The notes below the pieces were generated by a model. It was given only the letters and a program-made list of their open reading frames with translations, was not told the origin of the DNA and ran no database searches. A stretch of 64,000 nt of DNA from Candidatus Parcubacteria bacterium (GTDB lineage Bacteria; Patescibacteriota; Minisyncoccia; Phycocordibacterales; JAKAEA01): contig CAWDXL010000016.1 of NCBI GenBank assembly GCA_963806325.1, positions 4,043 to 68,042 of the forward strand, in the 5' to 3' direction. The position numbers and the translations under genes are program-made. Positions 44,042 through 63,497 of this stretch are shown piece by piece. Within the stretch, counting starts at the first letter, position 1; each line of letters opens with the position of its first letter.

Positions 44042-44043
44042 CT

Positions 44044-44430: not shown

Positions 44431-44575
44431 AGGTGATTTTTATATAATTATGTAAGTAGTACGTGCGTGCACATAATTATACACGATTTTTCAACAATGG
44501 TTTCTTGCTGTTAATGCAAAGCATTGTATTATGGTGGAGTATCTTACTAACATAATCGATACTGCATTTAATCTT

Positions 44576-47368: not shown

Positions 47369-47370
47369 AA

Positions 47371-47405
47371 TTGACAAATATCTCGTTTGAAATAGTATTT
47401 CAAAC
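47371..47405 (+). promoter_or_regulatory. Promoter-like element overlapped by a perfect 10-1-10 palindrome
   Basis: TTGACA (47371-47376), a 16-nt spacer, then TAGTAT (47393-47398). The palindrome GTTTGAAATA-G-TATTTCAAAC (47385-47405) lies 36 nt upstream of the ATG at 47441, with no T-run after it. Confidence 0.4.
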
Positions 47406-47440
47406 AGAACAGTATATTTCCTTTTACTACGAGGTGATTT

Positions 47441-47824: not shown

Positions 47825-47839
47825 CTGTCTCAACAGATC

Positions 47840-47876
47840 AAGCCGCTTATTTTTGCAGAAAACAAGCGGCTTTTTG
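47840..47876. terminator. Bidirectional rho-independent terminator between convergent genes
   Basis: AAGCCGCTT (47840-47848) pairs with AAGCGGCTT (47864-47872), followed by TTTTT. Confidence 0.7.
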
Positions 47877-47896
47877 TTTGATTTGATTGAAAACAG

Positions 47897-48343
47897 CTAA
47901 GAAGTTTTAAGTGCGTAGATATCTTTGAGAATTTCAGCACTGTGATGAGTAGGGTCAACTTTTGGATATGCTTTTAAAATCACACCGTCGGGACTTATAA
48001 GGTATGAAATGCGCTTTGTGAAGGGAACACTGTTTGCGCCGTAAGCCCCAATAGTTTCCTTCTTAGGATCAGATAAAAGAGTGAAAGGGAGCTGATATTT
48101 TTCGGCAAATTTTTTATGGCTTTCCACCGAATCAGCGCTGATGCCAAAAACTTTTACACCATTACTTTCAAAATCTTTATATATATCGCGGATGGCACAC
48201 GCCTCCTGCGTACAGCCGGGTGCATCATCTTTTGGATAGAAATAAATGAGCACGTAGCTATTGCGATGATAGGAAAGTGAATGCTCTTTGTTGTTCTGAT
48301 CCAGAAGCTTAAAATCAGGTGCGGTTGTGTTTATAGTCAGCAT
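47897..48343 (-). CDS. bcp: Thiol peroxidase Bcp (peroxiredoxin)
   Basis: FYPKDDAPGCTQEACAIRD (peroxidatic Cys motif PxDxxPGCTxE), 148 aa. Confidence 0.85.
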   Translation of the reverse strand: MLTINTTAPDFKLLDQNNKEHSLSYHRNSYVLIYFYPKDDAPGCTQEACAIRDIYKDFESNGVKVFGISADSVESHKKFAEKYQLPFTLLSDPKKETIGAYGANSVPFTKRISYLISPDGVILKAYPKVDPTHHSAEILKDIYALKTS

Positions 48344-48364
48344 ATAGAGGTGGGTGGATTATAA

Positions 48365-49300
48365 TTAATTTTTTCCTCCAAATTTTTTAAAGAGTCTTTG
48401 TACAAGACTACCCCTTGATTTTTGACTGATCTCTTTCATGCGCTGTACTATATATTCAATAGCATATTCCTGCTCCCTTTTCATTTTTTTGAGTCGGGGC
48501 AACGCAGAAGTGAGTGATGGATCTTTTGTTGCCGTTTCCACCATCGTTTCAAGTTCATGAAGAGCTGTACGGCGGGTGTCTATATTCTGCTGAAGCTCAG
48601 TAATCGATGTCGAGGCAGGCAGCCATTCTTTAAGCTTATCAGCAGACGATAAGCCTGTCTCAAAAGTGAGATATGTCTTAAGGAGCGGGGAAGGAGGATT
48701 GCTTTCTTGTCTGCCAAATTGCGGACTAGTCACGTCCGGCTGATCTCGGTGTCGCTGTTCCCTCTGTTCTGTAAAATATCCTCTTGCGTCTCTTTGCTCG
48801 TAGATTGGCTCCATAGCCTTTCGCTGGCGCTTGAGGCGGGCATTTTCGGCATCCTGTTTTTCATCAATATTTGTAACACTTTTCACCCACTGATTTACCT
48901 GATCGATAAATGGCTGTTCGCGTTCGCTTTTTGCACGATCATATGTCGCTATTGCTGCATCAACTTCTCTTTGTTGTTCGGGAGTCTGTGCAATTCTATA
49001 CTTTCCAGGGTTCTCTTCGCGGCTTTTCTTGATTTGTCCTTGAGCCATATCAACTGCCTCTTGCGACGCTCGCTCGATGATCTTATCGAGCTCCTCAACT
49101 CTTTGTTTTAATACTCTGGCTTCTTTATATTTTCCTGCTTTGGTGAGGCTGCCAATTTCATTGTAGAGTTCGTGCTGTTCTTTAATTGTATCGAGTACTG
49201 TATTAGCTTCTGCGACCATAGCATCACCCTCATCGACGTTTTCTGTAGCTAATTCTTGCGAAGATTTTTCCTGTTCAGGTTCAAATGTAAGAGTTTCCAT
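48365..49300 (-). CDS. Charged coiled-coil hypothetical protein
   Basis: 311 aa, rich in Glu/Lys/Arg/Gln, with no TM helix. No motif recognised. Confidence 0.5.
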   Translation of the reverse strand: METLTFEPEQEKSSQELATENVDEGDAMVAEANTVLDTIKEQHELYNEIGSLTKAGKYKEARVLKQRVEELDKIIERASQEAVDMAQGQIKKSREENPGKYRIAQTPEQQREVDAAIATYDRAKSEREQPFIDQVNQWVKSVTNIDEKQDAENARLKRQRKAMEPIYEQRDARGYFTEQREQRHRDQPDVTSPQFGRQESNPPSPLLKTYLTFETGLSSADKLKEWLPASTSITELQQNIDTRRTALHELETMVETATKDPSLTSALPRLKKMKREQEYAIEYIVQRMKEISQKSRGSLVQRLFKKFGGKN

Positions 49301-49396
49301 ATAATAAATGTTATTTTAATTTGCTCACAGTATTTTAGGTTTAAAAATGGCGGATGTAAATGGGTCCTGTATCAGAAATTGAGAGCTGATCTAAAT

Positions 49397-49435
49397 AAAA
49401 AAAGAAGACATCGGCTTTCTGGGCTCGATGTCTTC
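49397..49435 (-). terminator. Rho-independent terminator (minus strand), second of a tandem pair
   Basis: GAAGACATCG (49404-49413) pairs with CGATGTCTTC (49426-49435). On the minus strand a run of 7 U follows (A-run 49397-49403). Confidence 0.65.
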
Positions 49436-49506
49436 CGGAGGGGAGAAAATGCATCACGACTGTTCTGCCTGTAATGCTACAGCTTTCAATATTTAAATGC
49501 AAGCAA

Positions 49507-49537
49507 TGAAAAGCCGCCCTGATTTCTCGGGCGGCTT
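49507..49537 (-). terminator. Rho-independent terminator (minus strand) after the 49563..50009 gene
   Basis: AAGCCGCCC (49511-49519) pairs with GGGCGGCTT (49529-49537). On the minus strand TTTTC follows. Confidence 0.6.
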
Positions 49538-49562
49538 GAGGATACATTTGCTGCTGGCAAAA

Positions 49563-50009
49563 CTATTCTCCCGCCACAAGCTCATTGAAGGGGGTGAGGT
49601 CATTTTCACCATCGAATACTACACCCTTGAAATCGATGATGACGGTGAAAATTAGTCTATAGTTGCCCTGGATACTCCGTTTGAACTTTTTAAGATGCGA
49701 CTCGAGGTCGCTCATCAACGAGGTTGCCTCGGTGCGGTCGAATTCGTCGAAGGTTGAGAGTTCCCCGCTGACCTTAAAAAGTCCCCGCTTCATGTCAATC
49801 GTGATTGCACCACGACAACCGATGTGGCTAAAAGTTTTCAGAAAAGCTTCGGTGAGATAGATGAATTTGTAATATTCGATTCCCATGTGAGAACAAATAC
49901 TAAACATTTCTTCATTCTCTCTGCGTACCCCAACAACGCATTCCGGTCGGGAAGAATTGTTGTAATATCGCCCAGACAGACGCACGGTAGTGAAATTGAT
50001 GCCCAGCAT
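49563..50009 (-). CDS. 148-aa hypothetical protein, last gene of the putative Zur-controlled operon
   Basis: ORF only, 105 nt downstream of the HAD-like domain on the same strand, and followed by two terminators. No motif recognised. Confidence 0.45.
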   Translation of the reverse strand: MLGINFTTVRLSGRYYNNSSRPECVVGVRRENEEMFSICSHMGIEYYKFIYLTEAFLKTFSHIGCRGAITIDMKRGLFKVSGELSTFDEFDRTEATSLMSDLESHLKKFKRSIQGNYRLIFTVIIDFKGVVFDGENDLTPFNELVAGE

Positions 50010-50114
50010 ATAGGACCCTTCTTGTGTGTGATGGAACCTTTACTGCTCTCAACTATATCATTTTTAAAATAAAAGTCAATATATCTTGTGAGCTGTTAAA
50101 CATTTTGAGGCAGT

Positions 50115-51934
50115 TTAATTCTTTATTACCTGCCTATTTAGTTCTGAAACAACTGACAAAATTGTAGAATATTGTAGACATACACAATATTTTGATTCAT
50201 CTTCCGTAAAATTATGACTGCCATCAAGAAACGGGTTGAGAGAGAATTCGAATTTTGATGGGATAACCGTGCAAAAAGCAAGATTCTTGCCTTCTTCATT
50301 GTTTATAGCTTTGCAAAACTCAACATCGGTTGGTAGATCACCAAAATACGCTATCTTTTCTCCTTGTGGGACAAATTTTCTCAGAGTGTGTAATTTAGGC
50401 TTTCCACCGAGAATAGGGTCGGCACCGGTAATATATTGGCGAGGAATTAGATGTTCGCCAATAAAATTAAATCTTTCTAGAAGTTCAATCAGAGAATCCT
50501 CTGATCGGTTACTGATAATTCCAAAACGTTTATTCGTATTTCTACACAGGATATTTAACTGCTCGATTAAATCTTTCGCATAGGAAAGCGGATGAATTTC
50601 CTGATCAAATTTGCAGAAAAAATACCCAAATATATTTCAAAAACCATACGGGATGTTATACCACTAGTAATATAAGTTTCTCCTGAGAGGTTTGGCTGAT
50701 GTGACAACCATGCTTTGATGTTAGCTTCAAAAAGCTTCATGCATTCCATTGCACGGTGGGGATTATGGTCATAGTATTTATTATTTGAGAAAAATTCTTT
50801 TATCTTCTTAAGAATACTTTCAGCATCTATTTGTTTGTCATACAAAAATACGCCATACGTACGTGAACTCACCCTCAAAATATCGAATTCACTAATAAAG
50901 CTGTCTTCTCCTTCCTCGAGAAGTTCCTTTTCTAAAAGTTTCATTGACTGGGATGCTACCCAGGGAACTCGCTCGTATACCGCCGGATTTTCACGATAAA
51001 ATCTCTGCAGGTTTTCAAGAATTGGAACAACTATACCGCTTTCTTTGCGCACAAGATTTGTCCGGCCGCGACTAACAGAGTTTTCAATATTCGGATCTGC
51101 TGGATATATGGCAAGAACGGGATTTTTCCGCTTAAAGCCGCCTTTAGTTAATTTGAAACCAAGACAATTTGCATCGGCGGCAGTAGTCTCTGATTCGTAC
51201 ATAGTTTTTGTTTTCTCAAAGAATGCTCTGGCCATGAGGAAATCATTCTCTTTTTCTGAAGAATGCTCATTGGAAAATGTCTCGAATCGTTTTTTAGCTT
51301 TTCTAATAATTTCTTCTGAAAGATACGCGGTGTATTTTTCATGTGTTTTAAAATACGTAAATTGATGTAACATATCCCGTCTGTCTTTGAAAATATAGGT
51401 ATGCCAATCAATAAAAGAAACATGGGAGCACCTGTGTTTTTTGAGTAGCCGAGTCACATTTGCCATGTACAGATCAATCACTGAGTGGTCAATAACCTGA
51501 CTTAAGGTAAATACATCGCCATCAGAAAGAACAGTAAATTGCACTCCATATGGGTACAGTGTCTCTATTTTCTGTGCAATACGATCAAGATTTCTAACCA
51601 GAATTTCTTCTCCAAGGTCAACCGCCTGATCCAAACTGTCGGTCTTGATTGGCAGATCAAACAAATAGAAAGAAAGAGGTAGTTTTTTTGCGAATCGGCT
51701 CCGTGCAGAATGTATAAATTTTTCTTTTAGAATATTTTGTTCCTCTCGAGTGAGATAATTTCTTCGTTTAATTCTGTTAGATTGCAAAAAATACCAGATT
51801 GCTAATACAGGAGCATATTCTTGATTTTCTTCACGAGCCGCTTTTTTTACAGCTCTAGATAGCGCCCTCTCAAGAAGTCCATCGGTATACTCAAAATATT
51901 CTTTTTTTAACTTCTCTGGATTTTCTCTTTTCAT
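50115..51934 (-). CDS. DIT1/PvcA-like (isonitrile-synthase family) protein continuing into a HAD-IA-like hydrolase domain, reading frame broken once
   Basis: 455-aa ORF 50567..51934 contains LPLSFYLFDLPIKTDSLDQAVDLGEEILVRNLDRIAQKIETLYPYGVQFTVLSDGDVFTLSQVIDHSVIDLYMANV. This matches the remembered DIT1_PvcA core (LPAFPfKS...PDlGEE...L..L...I...YpPG....i.SDG.VF.d....D..v..Y). A Met-free open frame, 50115..50636 (not in the ORF track), encodes RFGIISNRS ... GGKPKL ... IAYFGDLPTDVE (HAD motifs II-IV). The frames can be joined at the A/T-run 50617-50622. Confidence 0.5.
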
Positions 51935-51989
51935 AAAATAAAATAGGGAGTCGAGTCTTTCAACATCGACCCCCTTGTGGTTTTTGTTT

Positions 51990-53558
51990 CTATAACGTTT
52001 CAGCCCACTCGCTTTCGTTATAGTCGGAGCGATGATCCCTGAAGAGCTGGTGTGCTCGCCGAAAGATGTCTAGAGCTTTCTTGTGTCCAAGCCCATGCTC
52101 CATGCCATATCGCAAGACGCGGTACACAGACTCGACCTTGAGATTTTCGGCGATCTCTGCTGGTTTGTGTGCCTCCATCCATTCCCAGCCGAGGAGTGTC
52201 AGTTCGGTAGTTGGGAGTGAATTGATCTCCTGTCGGATTTCCGCACTCATTAGGTCGTTCACCCAGTCGATCTGAAGGGTATTAATGAGCGCCTTGCCGA
52301 GGACGAAACAAGCACGATAGAAGGCGTAGTCGTCGGGCCAGACTTTGGTTTCCCACTGTCTGACGAGGTGACGGAATCCTGCAATTCGCCACTGTACGCT
52401 TTTTCGGTATGCGCGCTCATGAACTTCATGGGGGACACCGGGGCGACGCGCCAAATGCTTGGCCGGATCGGCATCGCAGTTGGTGAGGACGCGCCCATCC
52501 CGAGTAATCGGATTTGGGTATTGCGCCAACAGATAGTCGATCGCTTCGATGGTTTTCTCCACAGGCAAATTGCTGTCCGTGAATACGTCCATCTGCTCGA
52601 CCGCTTTTCTGTTGTTGTCGCAATATTTACACATGAATTTCAATAAGGGTCCCAAATCCTCCGAAGAGGAAATGAAGTTGCCTCCTGGGGTGCCGTCGGT
52701 TCTGGCTCCCCAGATAATGGAACCTTGGACAAAATCCCAGATGCGCAACCCTTCGTGCTCAATACCAATTATCTTGCAAATACCCTTGGCACGGACGAGT
52801 CCATGCTTTTGGTAGAGATTTACGAGGACCGGCACAAGTATCGTTTCATCAATACCTTCAGCAAATTCCACGCTCGTCGCGTGGATCGGCACATGATGAT
52901 GGTGATCATGGGTATAAGAATGCTTGTGGTCGGCGTGGCTATCATGGTCATGGGTGTGGCCACAAGTCTTGCAAACCTTATCACCACCTCCGTCTTCCAA
53001 AAGACTCTCCAGCCGCGGCATCTCATCTTCTAGGAGAATCTGAATTGGGGCTCCGGAAAAGCGTCCGATATACTCGAGCACTGGCGCAAGTTTGGAATCC
53101 GAGAGGCTGCTTACCCCTTCGGCCCACGTGAGCCCGATCCTTGTTGCCGCTGGGAGCTGGAACTGCTCCACTCCAATTGTCCGGTTGAGTTCAAAATGCT
53201 GGACGTCGATCAGGCACAGGCAGTGCCAGTCGAAACCAAGCTTTTTGGCCATGCTGCGGATCGTTGTGGCGTCAGCGATGCCGGTTGGCTCAATGATGAC
53301 GAAGCCAATCCCGGTCCTTTCGGCTACTTCTTCGAGCGTGCGCTTGAGCACTCCCGCTGACTCGCAACAGACACACCCCGTAGTAAGGGGAAGCACTTCT
53401 CCCACCGAACTGACGCGCGATGCGTCTATGTTGGTTGTCCCCACATCGTTTACGATGCAGAGAGCAGTAATATGCCTTGTGGCGACCTGATTTAGGATTT
53501 GGTTGAGACGCGTGGTTTTGCCTGAGCCAAGTGGCCCTGAAATCACCAAAATGCGCAT
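51990..53558 (-). CDS. COG0523/CobW-family G3E GTPase (putative zinc metallochaperone) with a ~220-aa uncharacterised C-terminal extension
   Basis: Start chosen at MRILVISGPLGSGKTT (AAGGAGAA Shine-Dalgarno upstream). CxCC motif TGCVCCES, and a His-rich linker HTHDHDSHADHKHSYTHDHHHHVP. The CobW_C-like segment is followed by about 220 further residues with no recognised motif. Confidence 0.75.
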   Translation of the reverse strand: MRILVISGPLGSGKTTRLNQILNQVATRHITALCIVNDVGTTNIDASRVSSVGEVLPLTTGCVCCESAGVLKRTLEEVAERTGIGFVIIEPTGIADATTIRSMAKKLGFDWHCLCLIDVQHFELNRTIGVEQFQLPAATRIGLTWAEGVSSLSDSKLAPVLEYIGRFSGAPIQILLEDEMPRLESLLEDGGGDKVCKTCGHTHDHDSHADHKHSYTHDHHHHVPIHATSVEFAEGIDETILVPVLVNLYQKHGLVRAKGICKIIGIEHEGLRIWDFVQGSIIWGARTDGTPGGNFISSSEDLGPLLKFMCKYCDNNRKAVEQMDVFTDSNLPVEKTIEAIDYLLAQYPNPITRDGRVLTNCDADPAKHLARRPGVPHEVHERAYRKSVQWRIAGFRHLVRQWETKVWPDDYAFYRACFVLGKALINTLQIDWVNDLMSAEIRQEINSLPTTELTLLGWEWMEAHKPAEIAENLKVESVYRVLRYGMEHGLGHKKALDIFRRAHQLFRDHRSDYNESEWAETL

Positions 53559-53598
53559 AGCATTCTCCTTCTTGCTGATCGTCTTTGCTTGAATGTAC

Positions 53599-53665
53599 AT
53601 GCAACTAAGTTGCATTCCTGGGGGATACTATACACCACCATATTCATAATTGCAAATTACTTGCA
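53599..53665. promoter_or_regulatory. Two TGCAA-N5-TTGCA palindromes in the divergent promoter region (candidate Fur/Zur-family operators)
   Basis: ATGCAACTAAGTTGCAT (53599-53615, a perfect 8-1-8 palindrome) and TGCAAATTACTTGCA (53651-53665). Both lie between the COG0523 start (53558) and the Fur-family start (53685). Confidence 0.55.
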
Positions 53666-53684
53666 CATGTGATAATTTAAAGAT

Positions 53685-54101
53685 ATGAAATTAGACTACC
53701 GAAAGATGCTTAAAGAAGCCGCATTGAAGGTGACTCCTGTCCGTCTCGCTATCCTCAATTTGTTTTCAGAAGAGTGCAGGCCGCTGGATGCAGAATTCAT
53801 CCATTCAAAGTTAAGGAATAAAAATACTAATCTCGTGACGGTGTACCGGACCTTGACTTCACTTGAACAGGCTGGAGTCTTGAAACGCGTTGATTTGCAC
53901 ACAGACTCAGTTCACTATGAATTGACTGCTCATCATCACCATCATATTGTCTGCATACAATGTGGTGACATAGAAAGTTTTGAAATGTGCGACCTCGATG
54001 CATTCTCAAAAAGTATTCTCAAAAAATCTTCTAAGTTTAAACAAATAAACAACCATTCTTTTGAATTGTTTGGCATTTGCAAAATGTGCGTAAAAAAATA
54101 A
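53685..54101 (+). CDS. Fur-family metalloregulator (Zur-like by context)
   Basis: LKVTPVRLAILNLF (DNA-binding helix region), VYRTLTSLEQAGVL, HHHHHIVCIQCG and CKMC (CxxC pairs). 138 aa. Confidence 0.8.
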   Translation: MKLDYRKMLKEAALKVTPVRLAILNLFSEECRPLDAEFIHSKLRNKNTNLVTVYRTLTSLEQAGVLKRVDLHTDSVHYELTAHHHHHIVCIQCGDIESFEMCDLDAFSKSILKKSSKFKQINNHSFELFGICKMCVKK

Positions 54102-54131
54102 GATGGCATCTTCAATAAAGTTCCATCTCTG

Positions 54132-54181
54132 TTTGGGTCAACTTAAAAGACGGCTCTAAGTAACACTTCTAAAATCTGTCC
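54132..54181. repeat. Imperfect direct repeat R1, copy a
   Basis: TTTGGGTCAACTTAAAAGACGGCTCTAAGTAACACTTCTAAAATCTGTCC matches 56636-56685 at 41 of 50 positions with no gaps (hand alignment). Confidence 0.7.
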
Positions 54182-54350
54182 CCCGACTATGAGATTATTA
54201 TAACTATCCTAGAGGATAGGGAATATATGAATGGGTTGGGAGTGAAAATGATGCAAATTAAGGAAATGAGCAATTCTTAGTTTTCAGTTTTTTAGTGTGT
54301 ATATGTGGTAAAAAACTAAAAACTGTAAAATAATTTCATGTCTGTTATAC

Positions 54351-56676
54351 TTGAGTCATATGAAAAACTCCCGAAAAGGATTTATCATCCCTCTCCTAAT
54401 AATTGCAATTACACTGCTTGCCATCGGTGTCGGGGTATATGAGTACCACAAGGGCAAGACTTCAGCTCCAACACCGACTCAAACAACTACTATAGCAACC
54501 GCTCCTGTCTCTAACCAAAAAGACATCCTCGCCATCCTCGTATCTTTTCAGGATTCTAAACCAAACGCTAGTTCCGATACATACGCTAGCGTAAAAGCTA
54601 AGCTTGATGCAGTCAGTGCTTTCTATATAGAAAATGATTTAACCGGAGCATTCAAAGGCTTTACGTATGATATAACCCCCGGCTATGTTTCTACAGATTT
54701 CCATCAAGGCACTACCATTAACGTTAAACTTTTTAACGCAGCGGTTCAAGATGTTGAAAAACAGGCACAAAAAAAATATGGGTTCAACCCCTTGAACTAC
54801 AAATATATATATTTTATTACCCCGAAAGAGGTAAATTGTGGAGGTATCCTGGGATACTGTGTACCATCTACTCCGTTGGGATTTGATGATACTGGCACCT
54901 ATAGTAATCAAGCACTCCATGCCATATTTATCAATGGCCCCCAACCTACTTTGGTATATGCTCATGAATTAGGTCATGCACTTCCACAAGGTCTTCACCA
55001 TTTCGGAAGTTTAACGTGCGGCAAGAAAGATATTGACATTCTAAAGAATTGTTCCGGAACTAATTACAGTTACACCGTGATGGGTAATTTAGGGCTGACG
55101 CACCTCAGTGCTTATCAAAAAGAACGTATGGGGTACATCATTCCTGCTATGGAGCAAACAGTACTCAAAGATGGTATATACACTCTCACTCCCATTGAAA
55201 CACGAGCCGAAGGGTTAAAAGATTTGGCGGTTCAGTCTCCATCTGGAGGTTTGTATTATGTAGAGTATCGAACGCTATCTGGATTTGATACTGATTTCGA
55301 TCAACAAACATGGATAACTGAACCATATACAGGACTTGCCTTTGATGCGAATGGGAAAGCTACAAAAAATGATTCTGCGAATGCTCCCGAAGCACTTTTC
55401 TTAAAAAATCTCATCGATAATGGGGATATATTTACCGACGACCTTGACCCGATTGATATTTTAAAGATAACTGAAATGGCAAGTAATCCTACCACTGATA
55501 CCGTGAGTGTCACATTCAACAAAATGACTATCTCCGCCACCACTACCAATCAGGAAGCAAATCCTGTGCCCAAAGTCAGCGTTGTCCTTACCGATACTTC
55601 ATCAAAGCCATCTGTTACGTATACTGGCACCACAGACTCCAATGGCAATGTCCTTTTCAAAGATCTTGCCATGCTTAAATTCAAGGATACCTTCACCCTC
55701 AAGGCTTTGACTCCAGACTCGACAAAATACAAAGATTCTGACCCTGTTATTGTCACTACCAATGAGGATACTGATGACTATTCAGCTACTCTGAAGCTTA
55801 AAAGATGTGGCGAGCAGCACGCCTCCAACATTTAGTTTGAGCGGAGATGTGTTTAATAATTCAGTTGGCGTTTCAACATGGGATCCTAATTGCATCCCCA
55901 ACACGCCATATTCTGCAATTCTTTCAGGTAAGAATATTCCAAGCGGTAATTATACCTACGCAATAACACTCTATGGTACAGCTCTTGATAATTACAATGA
56001 TAGCAATGATGTTCCCTTTGCTCCATCCTCCTTTAAAAATATACAGCTAGCAACCGCAAACACTAATTCAATGCCGTTCAATACAACAATAACGGTTAAA
56101 AGTATAGTCGCACCCAGAGATTTTGAATACGACATGTTTTCTAATGGGGTTGAGGAGTATGATAATCCATTTGCTGTCATAGACGCATTTATAGATGGCA
56201 AGGATACCGGTCATTTATCGCACTATCAACTTATATATGAAAATGCCTATGGAGTTATTGCGGTGTATGCCAAAATTGTCATGAAAGATTCAAAAGGAAA
56301 CATTATAGGTACCTTCTATACATCTAACCATAATATTGACACGAGCAATACACAATCCAATAAAGAGGCTACTTATATACCTACTCTTTATCCTGCAGAC
56401 GCCAAAATATGCGGCACTGCATTTGCTCCAACGCCCTTCGGTCCTGCTAACACTGATGGTTATGGATCAATCGATGCCACTACGATTTATTATGATTTAA
56501 ATCAGGCTCCCGGTGTTCTCCTCAAAACAACTCAGCAAACATGGTGTGCTGAGTACAGTGCTTTAATGGGAGGAATAAAAGGGGATTGGGTGTTAATTAA
56601 AAATAAACGTCATTTCTGTAAATGCTCGATTCCTGTTGGGGTCAATCCAAAACACGACTCTAGGCAACACTTCTGA
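54351..56676 (+). CDS. Secreted HExxH zinc-metalloprotease-like protein, probably one ~770-aa gene broken by one frameshift
   Basis: 54351..55835 has an N-terminal TM, VYAHELGHAL (HExxH), and a C-terminal carboxypeptidase-regulatory-like beta domain (VSVVLTD..TGTTDSNGNVLFKDL). 55807..56676 opens right after a TGA in the +1 frame. Removing one A from the run 55800-55803 reads ..ATLKLKDVASSTPPTFSLSG... Confidence 0.6.
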
Positions 56677-56685
56677 AATCTGTCC
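56636..56685. repeat. Imperfect direct repeat R1, copy b (covers the last codons and stop of the protease-like gene)
   Basis: TTGGGGTCAATCCAAAACACGACTCTAGGCAACACTTCTGAAATCTGTCC is 41/50 identical to 54132-54181. Confidence 0.7.
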
Positions 56686-56796
56686 GCTCTACAGAATGAT
56701 TTTCGAACTTTAGATTGGGCTCAGTATATACCTTTTCCTGATTTAGTACTAAGAGATATTGAGAATTTACATAGATAAAAGCTTAAATTAAATTAG

Positions 56797-56894
56797 AGAT
56801 GGTTTTTCGAGCAGAATCAGTCGGGATTCAGTGTTATTGTTTGTTATATACAAGGGTCGCTATACTACATTTTTGGCTCAAATTAATTTACCTC
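56797..56894. repeat. Imperfect direct repeat R2, copy a
   Basis: Starts with AGATGGTTTTTCGA (an exact 14-mer also at 58206-58219) and ends with ..CTCAAATTAATTTACCTC (compare TCCAACTTGATTTACCCT at 58276-58293). The middle part is roughly 65-70 percent identical by eye, with small gaps. Confidence 0.55.
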
Positions 56895-56907
56895 TCTACT
56901 GCTGGCG

Positions 56908-56935
56908 TTGACACACATGAGGCACCTGCTATAAT
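56908..56935 (+). promoter_or_regulatory. Consensus sigma-70-type promoter
   Basis: TTGACA (56908-56913), a 16-nt spacer, then TATAAT (56930-56935). Both hexamers are perfect. Confidence 0.65.
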
Positions 56936-56940
56936 AGTAC

Positions 56941-57425
56941 GGTGCTCATGTCCCTCGGAGCAGGAGAGATTTTAGAGGGAGACCGATGTATGTTAAGTGT
57001 TCGTGACAAAAGTTAATAGCGAAAGCAAAAAGCTCTAGTGACGGATGCTTGCAGGGTCGAAAGACTTTGCAGGTTGCAGGGTTGTAAGCGGGTAACCGTT
57101 TTCGACCTCAAGCATCGGTCAGTGGGGCTTTTTTAGTGCCTTGCCAACAGCACCTGATGCTATCGGTGATTGTGCGGAGGGCGCTTAGAATAATTCTCGT
57201 TGGTTAACCCCTCTGCAACGAGCAGTTACTGGTCTGCAAAATCAGGAACGCCATGTCAATAAAAAACATAGGCGGCTGTATCTCTCTCACATGTCGCCGA
57301 GTCAATGGACGATGGGTCTGTGAGCCGACATACAGACGAAGAAACCCTAGACCAATTAAAGTCTAAGGTTTCTAAATCCAGAGGAGACGGCCTTCTTGAA
57401 AGGGAGCCGTCTTTTCTGTTTTTGT
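56941..57425 (+). ncRNA. Candidate structured non-coding RNA of unknown class (~480 nt)
   Basis: Lies between a consensus promoter and a terminator (AGACGGC 57385-57391 pairing with GCCGTCT 57406-57412, then a T-run). Hairpins found by hand: 56952-56979 (CCCTC/GAGGG); 57039-57121 (TGACGGATGCTTG/CAAGCATCGGTCA plus an inner AGGGTCGAAA/TTTCGACCT); 57196-57222 (CTCGTTG/CAACGAG); 57249-57274; 57276-57335; 57341-57372 (12-bp stem, 1 mismatch). Only a 60-aa ORF is present, and it runs through the terminator. Confidence 0.5.
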
Positions 57426-57620
57426 GTATGGTAATTATATCAACTGTATCCGTATCCGCATTAATTTCTGGGGATAACTTACTATGAATCCACTATATTA
57501 ATCATGAATAAATAAAAGTCAACCTCTTACGAGTTTCTCCTTTAAATACCTACTTTTTTGTATAGTGTGCATAACTCTTCAATAAAGCAATAGTTGTTTG
57601 ACACGTCGTGATATATAATT

Positions 57621-58205
57621 ATGATAAAGATTCTAGAAATGTCCGGAAGCACCCCTATAATTTTTTATGTAGATGCCCGTGTCCTGCTTGTGGGCATGTC
57701 TGTCTTTTTTCTCGCACTTCTTGCTTTGGTTTGGAAGGGAAGAAAAGAAATAGAAGAAATTATTGATAATAAAATTGGTAACCTAAGCAACAGTGCTCCT
57801 AAATTAATCAGTGCCATTATTGAACTACAGGCCATTATATCCACAAAAGTAAAGGGTGTAATTGTTAGCCAATCTTTAGTAGAAACTACGGGTAGTCCGC
57901 TGGCCCCAACAGAGTTTGGTGCAGAGTTAATTAAAAAAAGTGGTTTGGAAAAAGTGCTTAACGAGAACAAGGAAGATTTTTGTATAAAACTGAGAGCAGT
58001 GTTGCCTAAAGAATATACAGAGTATGATGTTCAGGAACATGCTAGAAATTTGCTTGTCAATCTTAAAGATGATTCTATTATGAATCCTGTAAAAGAGTAT
58101 GTTTATAATAATCCAGTAGATATTGAAATTATTTTAAAAGCCGGAGGTCTTTGGTTGAGAGATGACTTCTTGAATAAGCCGAGACAAATTAATACTAATA
58201 AGTAA
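57621..58205 (+). CDS. Membrane-anchored hypothetical protein
   Basis: 194 aa with one N-terminal TM (LLVGMSVFFLALLALVW) and a soluble C-terminal domain. No motif recognised. Its stop abuts repeat R2b. Confidence 0.5.
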   Translation: MIKILEMSGSTPIIFYVDARVLLVGMSVFFLALLALVWKGRKEIEEIIDNKIGNLSNSAPKLISAIIELQAIISTKVKGVIVSQSLVETTGSPLAPTEFGAELIKKSGLEKVLNENKEDFCIKLRAVLPKEYTEYDVQEHARNLLVNLKDDSIMNPVKEYVYNNPVDIEIILKAGGLWLRDDFLNKPRQINTNK

Positions 58206-58293
58206 AAGATGGTTTTTCGATGAAGTTTTTATGTTGTTTTTGTTGTAATTGTATCATTATGCGACACTGATTTTGAGTCCAACTTGATTTACC
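58206..58293. repeat. Imperfect direct repeat R2, copy b
   Basis: See R2a. The exact 14-mer AGATGGTTTTTCGA is at 58206-58219, and the conserved distal block ends at 58293. Confidence 0.55.
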
Positions 58294-58714
58294 CTGTATT
58301 ATAGGCATATTTTTCCTAAACAATAGCAAAATTCTCTTATTTATAGGCCTATTTATATCAATAATACGTCTTTCTAATAAATGTAATTATAGAAATCAAT
58401 AGTATATAAAATTGAATAGTGTTTGAAGACTTTTTGTATAGTTTTTTGACTCTTTTTTCTCTACAATAATCCCTATAAATATAGCTTTTTGACACCTAAA
58501 AAAGCACTTTTTGTCTTTTCCGCAGGGAAAATAAGCCATAAAAACCCCGCTAATCAGTGTTTCTCTAGGGGAAAGTATAGATACACTATACAGGTTTAAC
58601 CAAGGCTCTATTCGTAGTAGAGGTATACTCAGAAGCGATATATTTTTTTAAGTTACTAACTGACTGGTAGTGTCGAGTCTGTGTTTTAAGATGGAGATTG
58701 TGTGTTTCTATTCT

Positions 58715-59188
58715 TTATCTGTTCCGGAAGAGACCGAGTAAAAGTAACGTTGCAATAATAGCTAAAAGAACCCCAATGCCTCCTCCGAGCGCATAGCCTA
58801 TCCATATAATCCCTATTACAGTTGCAGCCAATAATGAGACCCCGATTATTATCCCAACAATACCATCGACAACCCTCATTAGTGGACTCATTATTGGGTT
58901 GAGGATGAGCACTATTAAATTTATAGGTACAATCATGAGCCAAAGTAATACTGGTATAAGTAGAATAAATAAAATACTACCCAGGGTGGTGAGTGCAGTG
59001 ATGTATGCCCACTTGATTCCGCCAGTTAGTCCAAGCAAGAAAGCGCCTAGAACAATAAGACTTATTGAGGTTAAAATCCACTGTTTTATTCTGTAAAGCG
59101 TCCTGTATATATTAAGAAAATCTTTTATTGGAGAGAATGCCTCTGATAATATTTTTATTTGTCTCGAATTATGAGTTCTGTTTTCCAT
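58715..59188 (-). CDS. Polytopic membrane protein (4-5 TM)
   Basis: 157 aa and strongly hydrophobic (ISLIVLGAFLLGLTGG; LGSILFILLIPVLLWLMIV; GIVGIIIGVSLLAATVIGIIWIGYALGGGIGVLLAIIATLLLLGLF). No motif recognised. Confidence 0.5.
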   Translation of the reverse strand: MENRTHNSRQIKILSEAFSPIKDFLNIYRTLYRIKQWILTSISLIVLGAFLLGLTGGIKWAYITALTTLGSILFILLIPVLLWLMIVPINLIVLILNPIMSPLMRVVDGIVGIIIGVSLLAATVIGIIWIGYALGGGIGVLLAIIATLLLLGLFRNR

Positions 59189-59220
59189 AATTTATTTACA
59201 TGATAAATCGTCTAACAAAG

Positions 59221-60183
59221 CTATATTTGTTGGTTCCAGCAGCCAGAATTATTATTACTGCAGAGGTGTGACATGTAACTACTCGAGAAATTGCTGAGAG
59301 TATTGCTTGGCATGCTATTCTCTTGCAGAAATGAGGCAATGATATTGAAGGCGGTGATGGCACTCTGCATATCTCCGTTAGCATTATTATAGTGATATTC
59401 ACCGCTATTACCCTCAGTGCTATCATACCCGCTCTGATATTCAGAGGCTGCATTGTTAAAATTAGATGATGCAGTTATGAGGCTTTGAGTAATATTTTGA
59501 TACGCAGCGCCTTTATAATTGTACTCATTGGCTAGATTCGAAGCATCTGTATTTGCGGGAATCAAATCAAGGGCAGCAGCGCTATTATCGATAAAAGGGT
59601 CTGGAAATTTTTGAGTAAGACTTTCTCGAGCTTGTTCCATTTGGTCATAACCATCCATTATCTTGAAATAGATATTTTTTACCGCACTCTCAAAGGCAGC
59701 ATCATTAATTGGTGCCAGTACTGTTACAGAGGAGGTTGGAGTAGCAGTTCCAGGCCCAGAGTGACATGGTGCACCCGTAATCGTGTTATACATGTCTCCA
59801 GGCGAGGCACAAGGGGTAGAAGTAGTGGTTGTTTGTGTTGCGGGTATAGTGGTATCCATTGCACTAGTGGAACTTTGTATTGTTGAAGATGAAGTACTTG
59901 TGCCAAGATGCATATTGATATAAGCACGGGTAATTGCACCGAAGTATCCGGATGCAGGTGCAATGCCAGCAATGGTTTGATATACAGCTACGGCAGTTTG
60001 TGTTAATGCACCAAAATATCCTGTTGGTTGAGCATTAAGAAGACCTTTTGAGATTAAATATTGTTGAAGTTGTGTTACTTCCGGCCCAGAGCTTCCTGTA
60101 GAGAGATTTGTATTAAAATCCGCAAGAGTTACAAACGGAATAAATGCTACTACGGCTACTAGGAGAATAGCTAATTTTTTCAT
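59221..60183 (-). CDS. Secreted protein with tandem PG_binding_1-like segments
   Basis: Start chosen at MKKLAILLVAVVAFIPFVTLA (60183). Contains GPEVTQLQQYLISKGLLNAQPTGYFGALTQTAVAVYQTIAGI and a second GYFGAITRAYI. No catalytic motif recognised. Confidence 0.6.
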   Translation of the reverse strand: MKKLAILLVAVVAFIPFVTLADFNTNLSTGSSGPEVTQLQQYLISKGLLNAQPTGYFGALTQTAVAVYQTIAGIAPASGYFGAITRAYINMHLGTSTSSSTIQSSTSAMDTTIPATQTTTTSTPCASPGDMYNTITGAPCHSGPGTATPTSSVTVLAPINDAAFESAVKNIYFKIMDGYDQMEQARESLTQKFPDPFIDNSAAALDLIPANTDASNLANEYNYKGAAYQNITQSLITASSNFNNAASEYQSGYDSTEGNSGEYHYNNANGDMQSAITAFNIIASFLQENSMPSNTLSNFSSSYMSHLCSNNNSGCWNQQI

Positions 60184-60417
60184 GGAAATTATTTTTTCTA
60201 ATAATCCCAGTGATGGAGTACAAAAAGCCCACCACATGAGTAGAGGCCGAAGCCTCTCATACCAGTTTCCTAGTATGGCCAAGCAGGACACCCCATATGA
60301 TGGGTTTTTTATCCTGCTTGGACTCTTTTCACCATGCCAGCAATTGCTTACTGGTTTAGGCTACTTACTTATTAAATTGTCATTTGACTATACAACAGAA
60401 AGAGTATAATCACAACC

Positions 60418-61083
60418 ATGAACGCCACATCTGAAGAGGTAGATTTTCTTGATGAGATATTCTTTGAGGTACAAAAAATAAGTAAAGAAAAACTCACCGA
60501 AGAATATGAAAAGAAATTCACTTTTGAGCTATCTTTTGAAGAAATTAATCGAAAACCGTTTCCGTGCTCCCTTTTGGCAGATAGCTATAGACATATTGCA
60601 AAAAGGCTAGAAAGAAAAGGGGTAGTTCAGTTTGTCGGCTTAGATAACTACTATCCAGAAAAAATTTCCTTTTCCATCTGCCTAATTCCACAGGATTTTC
60701 TCAAATTCTATTATCAGAAAAAAGGTATGATAAATAATCTTGAGGTAAAAGATTTCTCCGTATCTTTAAAGGATTGTAAAATCAGATTCGATGATGAGAG
60801 AGCAATTATTTTTATCAACGAAATACCTTGTCAACTAGCGCCACATTCACACGAGCATTGTCTTGCTAGAATGATGCTTACTCAGGAATCAAATGCCCCT
60901 GTCCAGGCGGTAGATATATATGAAGAAATAACGGGTGTTGAAATGGGAATGAGAGGGATTAAGAAAAAATTAAAACTCGTGCAAGATGCGATGTATTCTA
61001 TAAATGGCAAAGTTAAAGAAATAATTAATACGAAAGATATCCTATTTAGCTCGAAGAATAAGCTTATAATAAGGAATTTTTAA
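60418..61083 (+). CDS. Hypothetical protein
   Basis: 221-aa ORF preceded by TTGACT..TATAAT-like hexamers that end 7 nt before the ATG (possibly leaderless). No motif recognised. Confidence 0.45.
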   Translation: MNATSEEVDFLDEIFFEVQKISKEKLTEEYEKKFTFELSFEEINRKPFPCSLLADSYRHIAKRLERKGVVQFVGLDNYYPEKISFSICLIPQDFLKFYYQKKGMINNLEVKDFSVSLKDCKIRFDDERAIIFINEIPCQLAPHSHEHCLARMMLTQESNAPVQAVDIYEEITGVEMGMRGIKKKLKLVQDAMYSINGKVKEIINTKDILFSSKNKLIIRNF

Positions 61084-61385
61084 TCCGAGTCGGAAGTGAG
61101 TCGGCAGCAGAAAAGCTACGCTTATGACAGCCTGTTTTTTATTTGGAGAAATGTGAACACCAACAAGAAAGCCTGTTGCTCTCTTGGCAGATGCCTTTTG
61201 GCGTTCACAGTCTGCCAAGTGAGGAGCGGGCTTCTTTGTGTCAGAAGAAGCTCAAAATCAACAGAATAAAGATGAACAGTCTCTTAGTCGAGAAGAGATT
61301 ATTCATCTTGCAAAGATTTTTGATTTGTTGGCTTTGGCTGAGAGAGAATTAGAAGCAAATAACAAGAAGTCTAACGATATATAAA

Positions 61386-61793
61386 ATGGATATTATTTCA
61401 CAAGATTGGTTTCAGGCTCTCGTTGAAGAAATGTCTGCGACCATAACAGAGCGAAGTTTTAACGCTCGATGGGAGACAGTACAGTGCTATCACGAGATTG
61501 GAACAGCAATTCTTAAAGAAAATGACAACTTTGAGAGATGTAAAATTTATGGTCAACAGATTGTGCAGACCGTTGCAGAGTTTTTGAATAAAAAACCGCG
61601 AGTCATATACTATGCCGTACAATTTGCAAAGATGTTTCCGGACATAGATTCTCTGAAGGAAGGGAAAAATGTTAGCTGGTCAAAAATATGCAAAGAGATA
61701 TTGCCTCGTCATTCTACAGATTGCTCCCATGCAGAGCGTGAAAAAGTGACGATTGAAATATGCAAGAAATGTAAAAAGAAAATAATAGAATAA
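61386..61793 (+). CDS. Hypothetical protein (weak resemblance to DUF1016 N-terminal-type phage/plasmid proteins)
   Basis: 135 aa: WFQALVEEMSATITERSFNARWETVQCYHEIGTAILKE ... YGQQIVQTVAEFL. A C-terminal Cys cluster CSHAE..CKKCKKK. Weak call. Confidence 0.4.
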   Translation: MDIISQDWFQALVEEMSATITERSFNARWETVQCYHEIGTAILKENDNFERCKIYGQQIVQTVAEFLNKKPRVIYYAVQFAKMFPDIDSLKEGKNVSWSKICKEILPRHSTDCSHAEREKVTIEICKKCKKKIIE

Positions 61794-61873
61794 TGTTATT
61801 TATAGCCATATTATTGTGAGTAAAAATATGGAAAACCACAAGAATAAATGGTACAATTTTAATGAAATAGCCT

Positions 61874-63463
61874 ATGGAAATAAAACCTAAATCAATCATA
61901 TATGCCCGTGTCTCTTCACGGGAACAGGAATCCGGATACTCACTAGATTCTCAGAAAAAATTATTGAATGAGTATGCTGAGACTCATCGCCTTAAGGTTG
62001 TCAAAGTGTTTTCCGTGTCTGAATCTGCAAATGGGAAAAAGCAACGAGAAACATTTACTGAAATGATGAGTTTTGCTGTTAAAAATGATATTAAACATAT
62101 CCTTTGTGAAAAAACAGACCGTCTTACCCGCAACTTTAAAGATGCGGTATCTGTTGATGAGTGGGTTAACTCTAACGGGGAAAGGAGAGTGCATTTCGTG
62201 AAAGAGAATATGATTCTGCACCGAGATGCAAAATCTAATGAGAAGTTTATATGGAGTATAAAAGTTTCTGTCGCGCAGTACTATATAAATAACTTATCTG
62301 AAGAGGTAAAAAAGGGTTTACTTGGAAAATTGGAAGCCGGTTATCTACCGTATCAACCAAAGTTTGGGTATAAGAGTGCTAAACAAGATGGTAAAAATAT
62401 CCATGTTATAGATGAAAATGAAGCCGTGTTTATTGTGCGCATATTTGATATGTATTCGACGGGCAATTATTCTATCAATATTCTTAGGAAGAAATTGTTT
62501 GATGAAGGGATGAGAACTCGTCACGGCAAGAACATGTCTATAAGTAGAATAGCGGCTATTCTTGGTGACCCTTTCTACTATGGAGCATTACCCTGGAAGG
62601 GTGGAATACATGAACAACCAGGTAAGCATACTCCACTGGTATCACGTGAGCTGTATGACAAGGTTCAACTTATTTTAAGTGGTAAGGGTGCACCTAAACA
62701 TAGCAAACATACCTTTCCTTTTAGAAAGCTTTTGTTGTGCGCGAATTGTGGCGGCACCATGACTGGTGAATTACAGAAAGGGAATATTTATTACAGATGC
62801 AAGGGTTACGGTGGTTGTATGGTAAAAAGCTCAATCCGAGAGGATGATATTGAAAAGCAGATATTGGCCTCCTTTGAAATTTTTAGGAAGCTGTCTGATA
62901 AGGAGAGGGAAGAAGTAAGACAAGCCGTCCTTGACCTGCATAAAGAAGATTCTCAGTTTCGTGAAAAGTCATTAGCGAAGCTAACAACCGAACGTCAGAC
63001 TCTTGAGAGTCAGCGTGATACTCTCTATGAAGATAGGTTAGCTCAGCGTATTTCTATTGAAAAATGGCAAGTTAAAGATATGGATTATGAGTTTCGTATC
63101 AAGCAAGTAGAAGCTGCTATTGCTAAGCAGAGTGATGAGCAGACCAAATATTTTAAAGTTGGCTCAAGTCTTGTTGATTTAGCATTTAAAGCCGAGAAAC
63201 TTTATAAAGCATTGAATCCCGAGAAGCGCCGAGAATTGCTCAAGCTAATTTTCGCGAACCTCAAAGTTAACGGTAAAAAAGTCATATTTAGCTTCGTAAA
63301 ACCAGTAGAGAAACTGGTTGAGCGTATTAAGGAACGATTACAGCTAGAATTCATTTCCGAACTCAAGAAAGATGTTGCAGTACCTACGCTAAATCAATTT
63401 CCAGAACTCTTTTATTCTATAGTGTCCGCCCAGCAGGAATCGAACCTGCGACCATCTCCTTAA
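61874..63463 (+). mobile_element. Large serine recombinase (integrase) gene
   Basis: Resolvase-type N-terminus IIYARVSSREQESGYSLDSQ (nucleophile Ser) ... EKTDRLTRN, then a recombinase domain. A zinc ribbon CANCGG..YYRCKGYGGC is followed by a long coiled coil. The last 39 nt of the ORF overlap the 3' end of tRNA-Lys on the opposite strand. Confidence 0.85.
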
Positions 63464-63497
63464 AAGGGAGCTGCTCTACCATCTGAGCTATGGGCGG
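63425..63497 (-). tRNA. tRNA-Lys (anticodon UUU)
   Basis: Manual cloverleaf: CCGCCCA TA GCTC AGATGGTA GAGC A GCTCC CTTTTAA GGAGA TGGTC GCAGG TTCGATT CCTGC TGGGCGG A. 73 nt. The C1-G72 pair and a G-A mismatch at the top of the anticodon stem are slightly unusual. Confidence 0.8.

Follow-up and report, generated by a model that had tools for sequence, protein, structure and literature searches.

INTRODUCTION

Tyrosine integrases classically target tRNA genes. For serine integrases, no use of tRNA genes is known (PMC4383910). The SSV-type "suicidal" integrases (SSV1, pTN3, and pT26-2) have a tRNA target and carry the element's attachment site (attP) in the integrase gene, which is split to the ends of the element; these self-splitting enzymes are tyrosine recombinases and are exclusive to archaea (PMC8371274). 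In the integration-dependent immunity of mycobacteriophage BPs (cluster G/N/P), attP is located in the 3' part of a gene, and the free and integrated forms differ in C-terminus and behavior (PMC4557955). In the case of LI integrase, a large serine integrase, the zinc-ribbon-domain (ZD) motif is located 5 bp further out in attP than in the target site, attB (PMC3783163). Here, we analyzed a 64,000-nt stretch of DNA (the window, W) from a Candidatus Parcubacteria bacterium (assembly GCA_963806325.1, contig CAWDXL010000016.1, positions 4,043 to 68,042), in which a large serine recombinase (LSR) gene overlaps a tRNA-Lys gene. Positions 56,686 to 63,427 of the window are very probably a 6.74-kb integrative element that a large serine integrase inserted at the very 3' end of the tRNA-Lys(UUU) gene in the chromosome.

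The window was compared with two sets of loci. A scan with one genome per GTDB species yielded 80 loci holding LSR homologs, and a degenerate tRNA-Lys(UUU) pattern run on metagenomes yielded 80 usable tRNA-Lys loci; an exact 60-nt tRNA-Lys query had 0 matches in the metagenomes. Homologous or related loci are given L-numbers, and database homologs are given P-numbers. Attachment (att) sites were compared in ten loci (W, L003, L006, L008, L009, L010, L015, L020, L040, and L044), the family alignment contained 36 LSR sequences, and LSR tails were surveyed in the top 120 database homologs. Cargo families were searched for with Pfam, PHROG, and PADLOC, and RNAs were searched for with Rfam and nhmmer.

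RESULTS

Overlap between the LSR gene and the tRNA-Lys gene

The tRNA-Lys(UUU) gene was found on the minus strand at positions 63424 to 63497 by ARAGORN, as tRNA-Lys(ttt), and at 63425 to 63497 by Rfam (69.8 bits). The LSR open reading frame (ORF), located on the plus strand at 61874 to 63463, encodes 529 amino acids (aa) and ends in ..SAQQESNLRPSP (also given as ..FYSIVSAQQESNLRPSP) before the stop codon. Pfam identified Resolvase (E = 6.8e-21), Recombinase, and Zn_ribbon_recom domains in the protein, and PHROG matched it to integrase family phrog_95 (E = 1.4e-80). All 55 invariant columns of the family alignment, R12, S14, D82, R83, and R86 among them, were kept in the W LSR. The two genes overlap at 63424 to 63463, a stretch of 40 nt that includes the stop codon; with the Rfam coordinates, the overlap is 39 nt. 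An initial annotation of the window, made from the sequence alone, had noted a recombinase ORF overlapping an opposite-strand tRNA-Lys gene, and the ARAGORN, Rfam, ORF, and Pfam data confirmed it. In the integrated state, the integrase gene runs antisense into an expressed tRNA gene.

Attachment sites of the element

A 7-nt direct repeat, TGTCCGC, was found at 56681 to 56687 and at 63423 to 63429, and it contains a 4-nt core, GTCC. Based on these repeats, attL was placed at about 56,682 to 56,685 and attR at 63,424 to 63,427, which gives an element of 6,742 bp. Element sizes across the ten loci ranged from 6.7 to 11.2 kb. The GTCC core takes in the final two pairs of the acceptor stem, the discriminator, and the first base of the trailer, and the site comparison showed that the predicted crossover is inside this core. 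The predicted attB was likewise shown to consist of the acceptor 3' strand and T-arm of the tRNA plus about 20 nt of 3' trailer. Because the crossover is placed in GTCC, the mature tRNA is the same before and after integration, and only the 3' trailer changes.

Since the crossover falls within GTCC, host tRNA DNA accounts for 36 of the 40 nt shared by the two genes, and LSR codons 519 to 529 and the stop codon come from the tRNA-Lys gene sequence. The initial annotation had the recombinase coding sequence supplying the tRNA's 3' end; the relationship is the reverse, with the tRNA supplying 11 codons and a stop to the recombinase. Its placement of the right end at the tRNA-Lys junction agreed with attR, and its expectation that long flanking repeats would be missing was borne out by the 7-nt repeat. 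For the left end, it had offered about 57.5 kb, a pair of direct repeats termed R2, and 54.1 kb. The right edge of R2 copy 2 proved to be the boundary and the other two candidates did not, and the start coordinate of 57450 missed the actual left end (56,686) by about 770 nt. No long copy of the tRNA 3' half was found in the window with a 26-mer and a 16-mer (up to 3 mismatches) or with blastn-short, which matched only the T-arm of a tRNA-Arg gene. The search for a displaced tRNA 3' half failed because the repeat is only 7 nt long.

The arms of each site were then assigned. The host side of attL (56621 to 56685), which is R2 copy 2, contains the B arm and the native tRNA-Lys 3' trailer and ends in ..TTCTGAAATCTGTCC. 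The attL core region (56681 to 56687, with GTCC at 56682 to 56685) is identical to 63423 to 63429. To its right, the P' arm and a split-off LSR 3' end occupy 56686 to 56778 of the plus strand, with TTCGAAC at +17 from the core. The attR region (63400 to 63450) contains the P arm (..ATTCTATAGT), the GTCC core (63424 to 63427), and B' with ATCGAAC at +12. In the predicted attP junction, ..ATTCTATAGTGTCC is joined to GCTCTACAGAATGATTTTCGAAC.. (longer form, TTTTATTCTATAGTGTCC joined to GCTCTACAGAATGATTTTCGAACTTTAG), and in the predicted attB junction, ..TTCTGAAATCTGTCC is joined to GCCCAGCAGGAATCG.. (longer form, ACACTTCTGAAATCTGTCC joined to GCCCAGCAGGAATCGAACCTGC). In L139, which has the same tRNA 3' end as W, the trailer reads ..TGAAATTT followed across the junction by GTCCGCCC.

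Similar sites were found in the other loci. Positions 56682 to 56768 of W were 75% identical to positions 1950 to 2036 of L003, and positions 353 to 386 of L006 also matched. A pattern search located the block CTCTACAGRATGATTTTCGAAC upstream of the LSR in ten loci, and in 10/10 loci, the 4 nt to the left of the P' block were the same 4 nt with which the tRNA 3' end of that locus begins. W has the core GTCC, L003 has GTGC, and the tRNA-Asn loci have GCTC. The reconstructed attP, ATTCTATAG-TGTCCGCT-CTACAGAAT, is a 9-nt inverted repeat (8/9 positions matching) with an 8-nt spacer. Based on pattern matches, (A/T)TCGAAC was present at +12 from the core in the B' arm of 7/10 loci, and TTCGAAC was present at +17 in the P' arm of 9/10 loci. 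By eye, the B' T-loop of L040 and L044 reads CTCGAAC, likewise at +12, and the P' motif of L020 is degenerate (TTTAGAAC). Relative to attB, TCGAAC in attP was therefore displaced outward from the core by 5 bp, which fits solved complexes of LSRs with DNA and the shift of the ZD motif described for LI integrase. Because the +12 and +17 positions match this 5-bp shift, the T-loop probably serves as the ZD recognition motif.

Several candidate sites were rejected. The tRNA-Arg gene (41272 to 41344) was considered as attL or as a chimeric att site; it is a complete tRNA gene whose own acceptor-stem strands are complementary, and a terminator is present on the 3' side. An inverted 14/15 match in R2 copy 2 (56626 to 56640) was considered as the P' arm and was superseded by the conserved P' block that starts at 56686. 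Repeats of 14 to 19 nt in L007, L037, L066, and L071 had been read as a crossover in the T-loop and are now interpreted as a partial resemblance of P' to B' on the far side of a crossover close to the 3' end. The ends of Logan contig L001 (W 56553 to 63462), which lie close to those of the element, were rejected as evidence of excision, since the offsets of 133 and 35 nt misfit branching at k = 31. An indel near the end of this contig suggests low coverage.

Location of attP within the LSR gene

We showed that the predicted attP is inside the integrase's own ORF, about 30 codons before the stop. When P was joined to P', the LSR reading frame was kept in 10/10 loci, and a conserved tail, ..AL(Q/V)DDFRT(I/L)DW..EYPFP..AL.EIKSLL.., was restored ahead of the stop codon. 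In W, the 30 codons that are split off at attL read ALQNDFRTLDWAQYIPFPDLVLRDIENLHR plus a stop, and the W tail, SALQNDFRTLDWAQYIPFPDLVLRDIENLHR, is encoded at 56686 to 56778. The initial annotation had overlooked both the attP within the LSR ORF and this real 3' end of the gene. Over 28 tail codons, the differences at codon positions 1, 2, and 3 were 0.37, 0.26, and 0.54, respectively, and the pattern vanished in other frames; judged from the alignment, this is a coding-type substitution pattern. Both coding and the DNA site apparently constrain the F-R-T codons of the tail.

About 20 of the top 120 homologs (e.g., P0015, P0066, P0096, and P0120) had an uninterrupted tail, and about 70 ended in tRNA-encoded tails. 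Since both tail forms are present in the databases, the free and the integrated states of the gene have both been sequenced. An AlphaFold2 (AF2) model of P0120, one of the uninterrupted homologs, had the LSR architecture, with long helices (residues 340 to 457) inside the zinc ribbon and a disordered linker (residues 493 to 519) followed by three C-terminal helices (pLDDT 75 to 85). The best PDB matches of this model in Foldseek were the SPbeta, Bxb1, PhiC31, and LI integrases (E = 9e-20 to 2e-10).

LSR homologs at other tRNA genes

More than 1,700 LSR homologs were found at E < 1e-20, and the named sources were almost all Patescibacteria (Kaiserbacteria, Paceibacterota, Minisyncoccia, and Parcubacteria). 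The closest homolog, P0002 (locus L003), is 67% identical to the W LSR and overlaps its own, different tRNA-Lys(ttt) gene by the same 40 nt. Many of the 36 aligned homologs end in ..LLR(G/R/D)(Q[DEG]SNL..), which is the translated reverse complement of the tRNA acceptor and T-arm. ARAGORN found an opposite-strand tRNA overlapping the LSR stop in 41 of about 80 loci; these tRNAs were mostly Asn(gtt), and the rest were Gln, Asp, Leu, and Lys. A T-arm hairpin was located at the LSR stop in 69/82 loci. The overlap of LSR and tRNA genes is, on the evidence of these genomes, a property of the family and not a matter of chance.

Many of the apparent exceptions were tRNA genes cut after the anticodon stem by a group I intron, and ARAGORN misses these targeted tRNAs because the intron interrupts them. 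Rfam confirmed Intron_gpI in L004, L009, and L017. Intron-bearing tRNA genes were located at L004 11700-11933, L009 8638-8871, L017 11690-11990, and L069 13337-13609, and were judged by eye to be present in L010, L020, L021, L026, L030, L034, L040, L046, L058, L080, and L083. A group I intron directly after the anticodon stem was common in the targeted Patescibacteria tRNAs, mostly tRNA-Asn.

LSR relatives were also found in IMG/VR viral contigs of 28 to 49 kb, where they were fused to tRNA-Asp or tRNA-Ala or had a partial tRNA-like, attP-like tail (L097 11447-11523, L098 11456-11531, and L095 1460-1530). Because these contigs are phage-sized, tRNA targeting reaches beyond small elements. An uninterrupted, attP-state integrase was observed on the element L195/L196, which is represented by contigs of 22 to 23.7 kb from three samples. 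This element also holds DUF932, a DnaG-type zinc-ribbon primase, a HepT/MNT toxin-antitoxin pair, an ImmA-like peptidase, and a second (tyrosine) integrase.

Occupancy of related tRNA-Lys sites

Among the 80 related tRNA-Lys loci, an LSR read into the tRNA-Lys gene only in L135. An LSR was located at the adjacent tRNA-Gln gene in L175 and L150 and nearby in L171, and about 95% of the related tRNA-Lys sites had no LSR. The gene order PolA, holA, tRNA-Lys, SpoU was kept in many relatives. The four genes were found on one contig in L133, L136, L138, and L155, with the end of holA about 200 to 540 nt from the T-loop; in L119, L183, and L186, the distance from holA to the T-loop was 20 to 40 nt. 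The large fraction of LSR-free tRNA-Lys sites and the direct PolA-holA-tRNA-Lys-SpoU order indicate that the element is, as judged by comparison across loci, mobile and not domesticated.

L003 has the order PolA-holA-(133-aa ORF)-attL-9.6 kb-attR-tRNA-Lys. It comes from a different species and has the same LSR-tRNA-Lys overlap and the same PolA-holA flank, as would be expected if the recombinase had been domesticated and fixed beside tRNA-Lys for a host function. The initial annotation had named such a shared overlap with conserved flanks and no empty sites as the sign of a domesticated enzyme, and it had proposed a search for empty tRNA-Lys sites in relatives. Empty sites proved abundant, attL and attR could be defined, and the cargo of L003 is wholly different from that of W. 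In addition, relatives of the LSR target at least five different tRNAs, occur in viral contigs, and are present in the databases in both uninterrupted and tRNA-fused forms. We therefore regard domestication as extremely unlikely.

Two side observations were made at the related tRNA-Lys sites. The orientation of tRNA-Lys between holA and SpoU in L160, L167, L123, L129, L149, L164, L139, and L143 was opposite to that in L155, L133, L136, and L138. In L165 and L171, tRNA-Lys fragments (..ACCTGCGACCAT.. and ..GCTGCTCTACCGA.., respectively) were located just downstream of the intact gene, and these look like footprints of other integrative elements with deeper crossover points.

Cargo of the element

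The GC content of positions 56686 to 63427 was 0.375, and that of the rest of the window was 0.426. These values bear out, to a modest degree, the AT-richness that the initial annotation had described as visible; parts of the window elsewhere are just as AT-rich. Its list of cargo genes (two membrane proteins, a PG_binding_1 protein, and 221-aa and 135-aa proteins) was correct, and the family searches that it called for, when run, found almost nothing.

A candidate structured noncoding RNA of about 470 nt is located just inside attL on the plus strand (56908 to 57415), in a GC-richer stretch. Its sigma-70 promoter (56908 to 56935, TTGACA-16-TGnTATAAT, with an extended -10 element) matches 12/12 consensus positions, and a hairpin and T-run are present at about 57385 to 57415. 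The minimum free energy (MFE) z-score versus shuffled sequences was -8.25. No Rfam match was found for this candidate, and nhmmer found no homolog of 56.8 to 57.4 kb in other loci.

Next in the element is a gene for a 194-aa protein with an N-terminal hydrophobic segment (57621 to 58205, plus strand; 188 aa from 57639 in the Logan contig), followed by a gene for a 157-aa multipass membrane protein (58715 to 59188, minus strand). Both genes are supported by an ORF and a gene call, and neither protein had a match in Pfam, PHROG, or PADLOC. The minus strand also encodes a 320-aa secreted PG_binding_1 protein (59221 to 60183; Pfam PF01471, E = 1.8e-10), whose start was taken from the gene call in L001. 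PHROG endolysin families matched only the binding domain of this protein.

A LOOT RNA (Rfam RF03000) was found on the minus strand at 60242 to 60362, antisense to the LSR gene and upstream of that for the PG_binding_1 protein. It scored 85.4 bits against a gathering score of 46.4 and covered model positions 1 to 121 of 121, and compensatory stem changes were visible in an alignment of 8 LOOT sequences. Rfam identified LOOT in 7/7 tested LSR loci (L044 8673-8789, L004 4738-4851, L009 5333-5450, L006 8716-8831, L069 7476-7593, L014 6332-6460, and L017 8540-8661). By nhmmer, LOOT was present in about 19 LSR loci versus 0/80 LSR-free tRNA-Lys loci. It was always antisense to the LSR gene and 0.8 to 5.6 kb upstream of it. 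LOOT RNA is, judging from these loci, a recurrent cargo of the serine-integrase element family.

The remaining cargo genes are on the plus strand, between LOOT and the LSR gene. The 221-aa protein (60418 to 61083) belongs to an element-associated family with homologs 0.9 to 2.5 kb upstream of the LSR in L037, L026, and L064. A 47-aa ORF (..SREEIIHLAKIFDLLALAERE.., 61238 to 61381) is conserved just upstream of LSRs; it was 60% identical to L003 9527-9718, with conservation at the nucleotide level too, and shared a motif with a 15-locus cluster whose members lie about 0.5 kb upstream of the LSR. This ORF is a candidate directionality factor or regulator. The 135-aa protein (61386 to 61793) resembles only the N-terminal domain of DUF1016 proteins (Pfam PF17761, 28.5 bits, below the cut-off of 32.8) and had a weak match to PADLOC PDC-S02. 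No similarity between the W and L003 cargo was found besides the LSR and the small ORF.

Recurrent neighbors in the family were small same-strand ORFs of the DUF5659, HTH_17 (excisionase-like), HTH_36, AAA_25, and Prim-Pol types, and methyltransferase-like ORFs also recurred when the loci were inspected by eye. Small integrative plasmid-like elements typically have such neighbors. The W copy lacks the Prim-Pol, AAA_25, and HTH_36 genes of related elements, and Pfam, PHROG, and PADLOC found no capsid, terminase, replication, or transfer genes in it, in line with the initial annotation, which had seen no capsid, terminase, or replication genes. Capsid, terminase, portal, and tail genes, which would define a prophage, were likewise missing; PHROG found no structural or packaging family in the element and matched only the integrase and the PG-binding domain. 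With a 135-aa protein that looks like a truncated DUF1016 protein, such a gene set would also suit a decayed, immobile prophage or plasmid remnant in which the integrase persists with no excision or no propagation. The state of the recombination machinery argues otherwise. The LSR is full length with every invariant column kept. Both att sites, the conserved 47-aa ORF, and the LOOT RNA are intact, as is the split-off 30-codon exon, which is in frame. A decayed remnant is thus unlikely. Of the two labels used in the initial annotation, "small integrated element" was supported, with the LSR as its driver, and "prophage remnant" was not favored.

The region between holA and attL

Some of our observations speak against an integrated, mobile 6.74-kb element. 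The crossover was located to within the 4-nt core, and in L003, the symmetric center would be the palindrome GC. The conservation of DDFRT in the tail coincides with the P' DNA half-site and may reflect a constraint on the DNA site rather than protein function. No excised circle, attP junction, or same-species empty site was found, and only two contigs in the collections carry the element. Its autonomy is unproven because no recognizable replication, transfer, or packaging gene was identified by Pfam, PHROG, or PADLOC. Finally, 15.8 kb of DNA between holA and attL (40,881 to 56,681) is also absent from syntenic relatives, and the element does not explain it.

This 15.8-kb stretch may be an older accretion at tRNA-Lys or lineage-specific DNA. 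It contains a tRNA-Arg(CCG) gene, genes for three PG_binding_1 surface proteins, DedA/VTT, peroxiredoxin, PvcA-like, CobW, and Fur proteins, and a 2.5-kb segment flanked by R2. The GC content was host-like (0.433) overall and 0.49 to 0.56 across the CobW gene (52.0 to 53.5 kb). R2 is a 65-nt direct repeat (54117 to 54181 and 56621 to 56685, 78% identical) whose copies flank genes for two secreted proteins of 494 and 289 aa. The tRNA-Lys trailer plus the core, ..AAATCTGTCC, forms the end of each copy, and the pair may mark an older insertion at the same site. At the left edge of the stretch, the holA (DNA polymerase III delta) homolog is split over two frames (40143 to 40454 and 40549 to 40881), which may reflect a frameshift, a pseudogene, or an error in sequencing. 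The tRNA-Arg(CCG) and tRNA-Lys(UUU) genes are identical over 21 nt (CCCAGCAGGAATCGAACCTGC, 41277 to 41297 and 63429 to 63449), covering the acceptor-stem end and T-arm.

We considered whether the mobile unit could be the whole 22.5-kb interval between holA and tRNA-Lys (40.9 to 63.4 kb), or a tandem island array, with the 6.7-kb LSR segment as the latest or rightmost module. In syntenic relatives, the distance between holA and tRNA-Lys is 20 to 250 nt (or about 2 kb), and the tRNA-Arg gene is missing between them. The R2 pair around the two-gene segment, with its shared endings, and the 21-nt T-arm that the tRNA-Arg gene at 41272 has in common with tRNA-Lys also point in this direction. Against such a unit, the attL at 56.68 kb contains the LSR's own 3' exon and defines a self-consistent element of 6.74 kb, which is within the size range of the family. 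The DNA from 41.3 to 56.7 kb is host-like in GC content (0.433) and encodes cellular genes (peroxiredoxin, DedA/VTT, CobW, Fur, and PvcA-like), and the tRNA-Arg gene is complete with its own matching acceptor stem. Moreover, the syntenic relatives are distant (PolA 55 to 61% identical), so lineage-specific gene gain is plausible. Based on these data, we find a 22.5-kb unit or array quite unlikely and prefer the 6.74-kb element with ends at attL and attR.

DISCUSSION

In mechanism, the element described here belongs with the large serine integrase elements, and it shows each defining feature of this class that could be tested. The enzyme has a resolvase-type catalytic domain with Ser/Arg, a recombinase domain, and a zinc ribbon with an embedded coiled coil, like the LI/A118, Bxb1, PhiC31, SPbeta, and TP901-1 integrases. 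The att sites are also like those of large serine integrases: short imperfect palindromes with inverted half-sites, a tiny core, a 7-nt repeat in place of long repeats, and a ZD motif that is 5 bp further out in attP. As in other elements of this class, the integrase gene is located at the element edge. In contrast to described large serine integrases, which use protein-coding or intergenic sites, the target here is the acceptor end and T-loop of a tRNA gene. The location of attP in the integrase ORF and the hosts, which are mainly Patescibacteria, also set the family apart. Because attP is inside the ORF, integration changes the C-terminus of the enzyme.

In its arrangement, the locus resembles Islander-type islands, which are built by tyrosine integrases. 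An intact tRNA-Lys gene is present at attR and a displaced fragment, TGTCCGC, at attL; the integrase gene is adjacent to the tRNA gene, tRNA function is kept, and occupancy is sporadic. Unlike in those islands, the recombinase is a serine enzyme, no Phage_integrase domain was found in the element, and the displaced tRNA fragment is 4 to 7 nt versus tens of nt, with no longer copy.

The position of attP within the gene, the tRNA target, and the two gene pieces at opposite ends of the element are all shared with the SSV-type integrases, and the gene was split in frame in 10/10 loci. However, SSV-type integrases are archaeal tyrosine recombinases from which a large, essential part is removed, whereas here, in a bacterial serine enzyme, a tRNA-encoded tail takes the place of only the last 30 of 548 codons, and the catalytic and DNA-binding domains are intact. 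The nearest functional analogy is with BPs immunity, in which attP is also in the 3' part of a gene and integration changes the C-terminus of a protein. In BPs, the gene that is cut encodes a repressor and the integrase is a tyrosine recombinase; here, the serine integrase gene itself is cut, and a functional consequence is inferred.

On integration, the last 30 codons are parted from the rest of the LSR gene and come to lie at attL (56686 to 56778), and the integrated gene reads 11 codons and a stop off the antisense strand of the tRNA instead. In the free circular form, the product would be a 548-aa enzyme whose C-terminal module is conserved and helical, and this enzyme would perform integration. 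The 529-aa integrated form may differ in activity or stability, and the C-terminus switch may help control excision together with the conserved 47-aa upstream ORF. We tentatively suggest that the LSR and its relatives form a large clade of bacterial serine integrases centered on Patescibacteria, in which the T-loop, conserved universally, is the ZD motif, attP is in the integrase's own gene, the enzyme is a 548-aa protein in the free form and tRNA-tailed in the integrated form, and the swap of the C-terminus might be a built-in directionality or stability switch.

A literature search, with incomplete coverage, found no report of tRNA-targeting or self-splitting serine integrases. Thus, tRNA targeting by a serine integrase and a self-splitting integrase gene in bacteria appear to be unreported in the searchable literature. 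The two occur together in hundreds of bacterial loci, and the att sites, including the core, both half-sites, and the 5-bp ZD shift, are readable straight from genomes. Prophage and island finders keyed to long tRNA-fragment repeats or to tyrosine integrases would miss these Patescibacteria elements because the repeat is 7 nt and the enzyme is a serine recombinase. In addition, the orphan LOOT RNA gains a genomic home as cargo of these elements. The family would provide natural serine integrases with a near-universal attB (tRNA acceptor plus T-loop), which is relevant to engineering the genomes of uncultivated lineages. If the proposed switch is correct, these enzymes would be a bacterial serine-recombinase counterpart of the archaeal suicidal integrases and of integration-dependent immunity, and they raise the question of whether the change of C-terminus on integration controls directionality.

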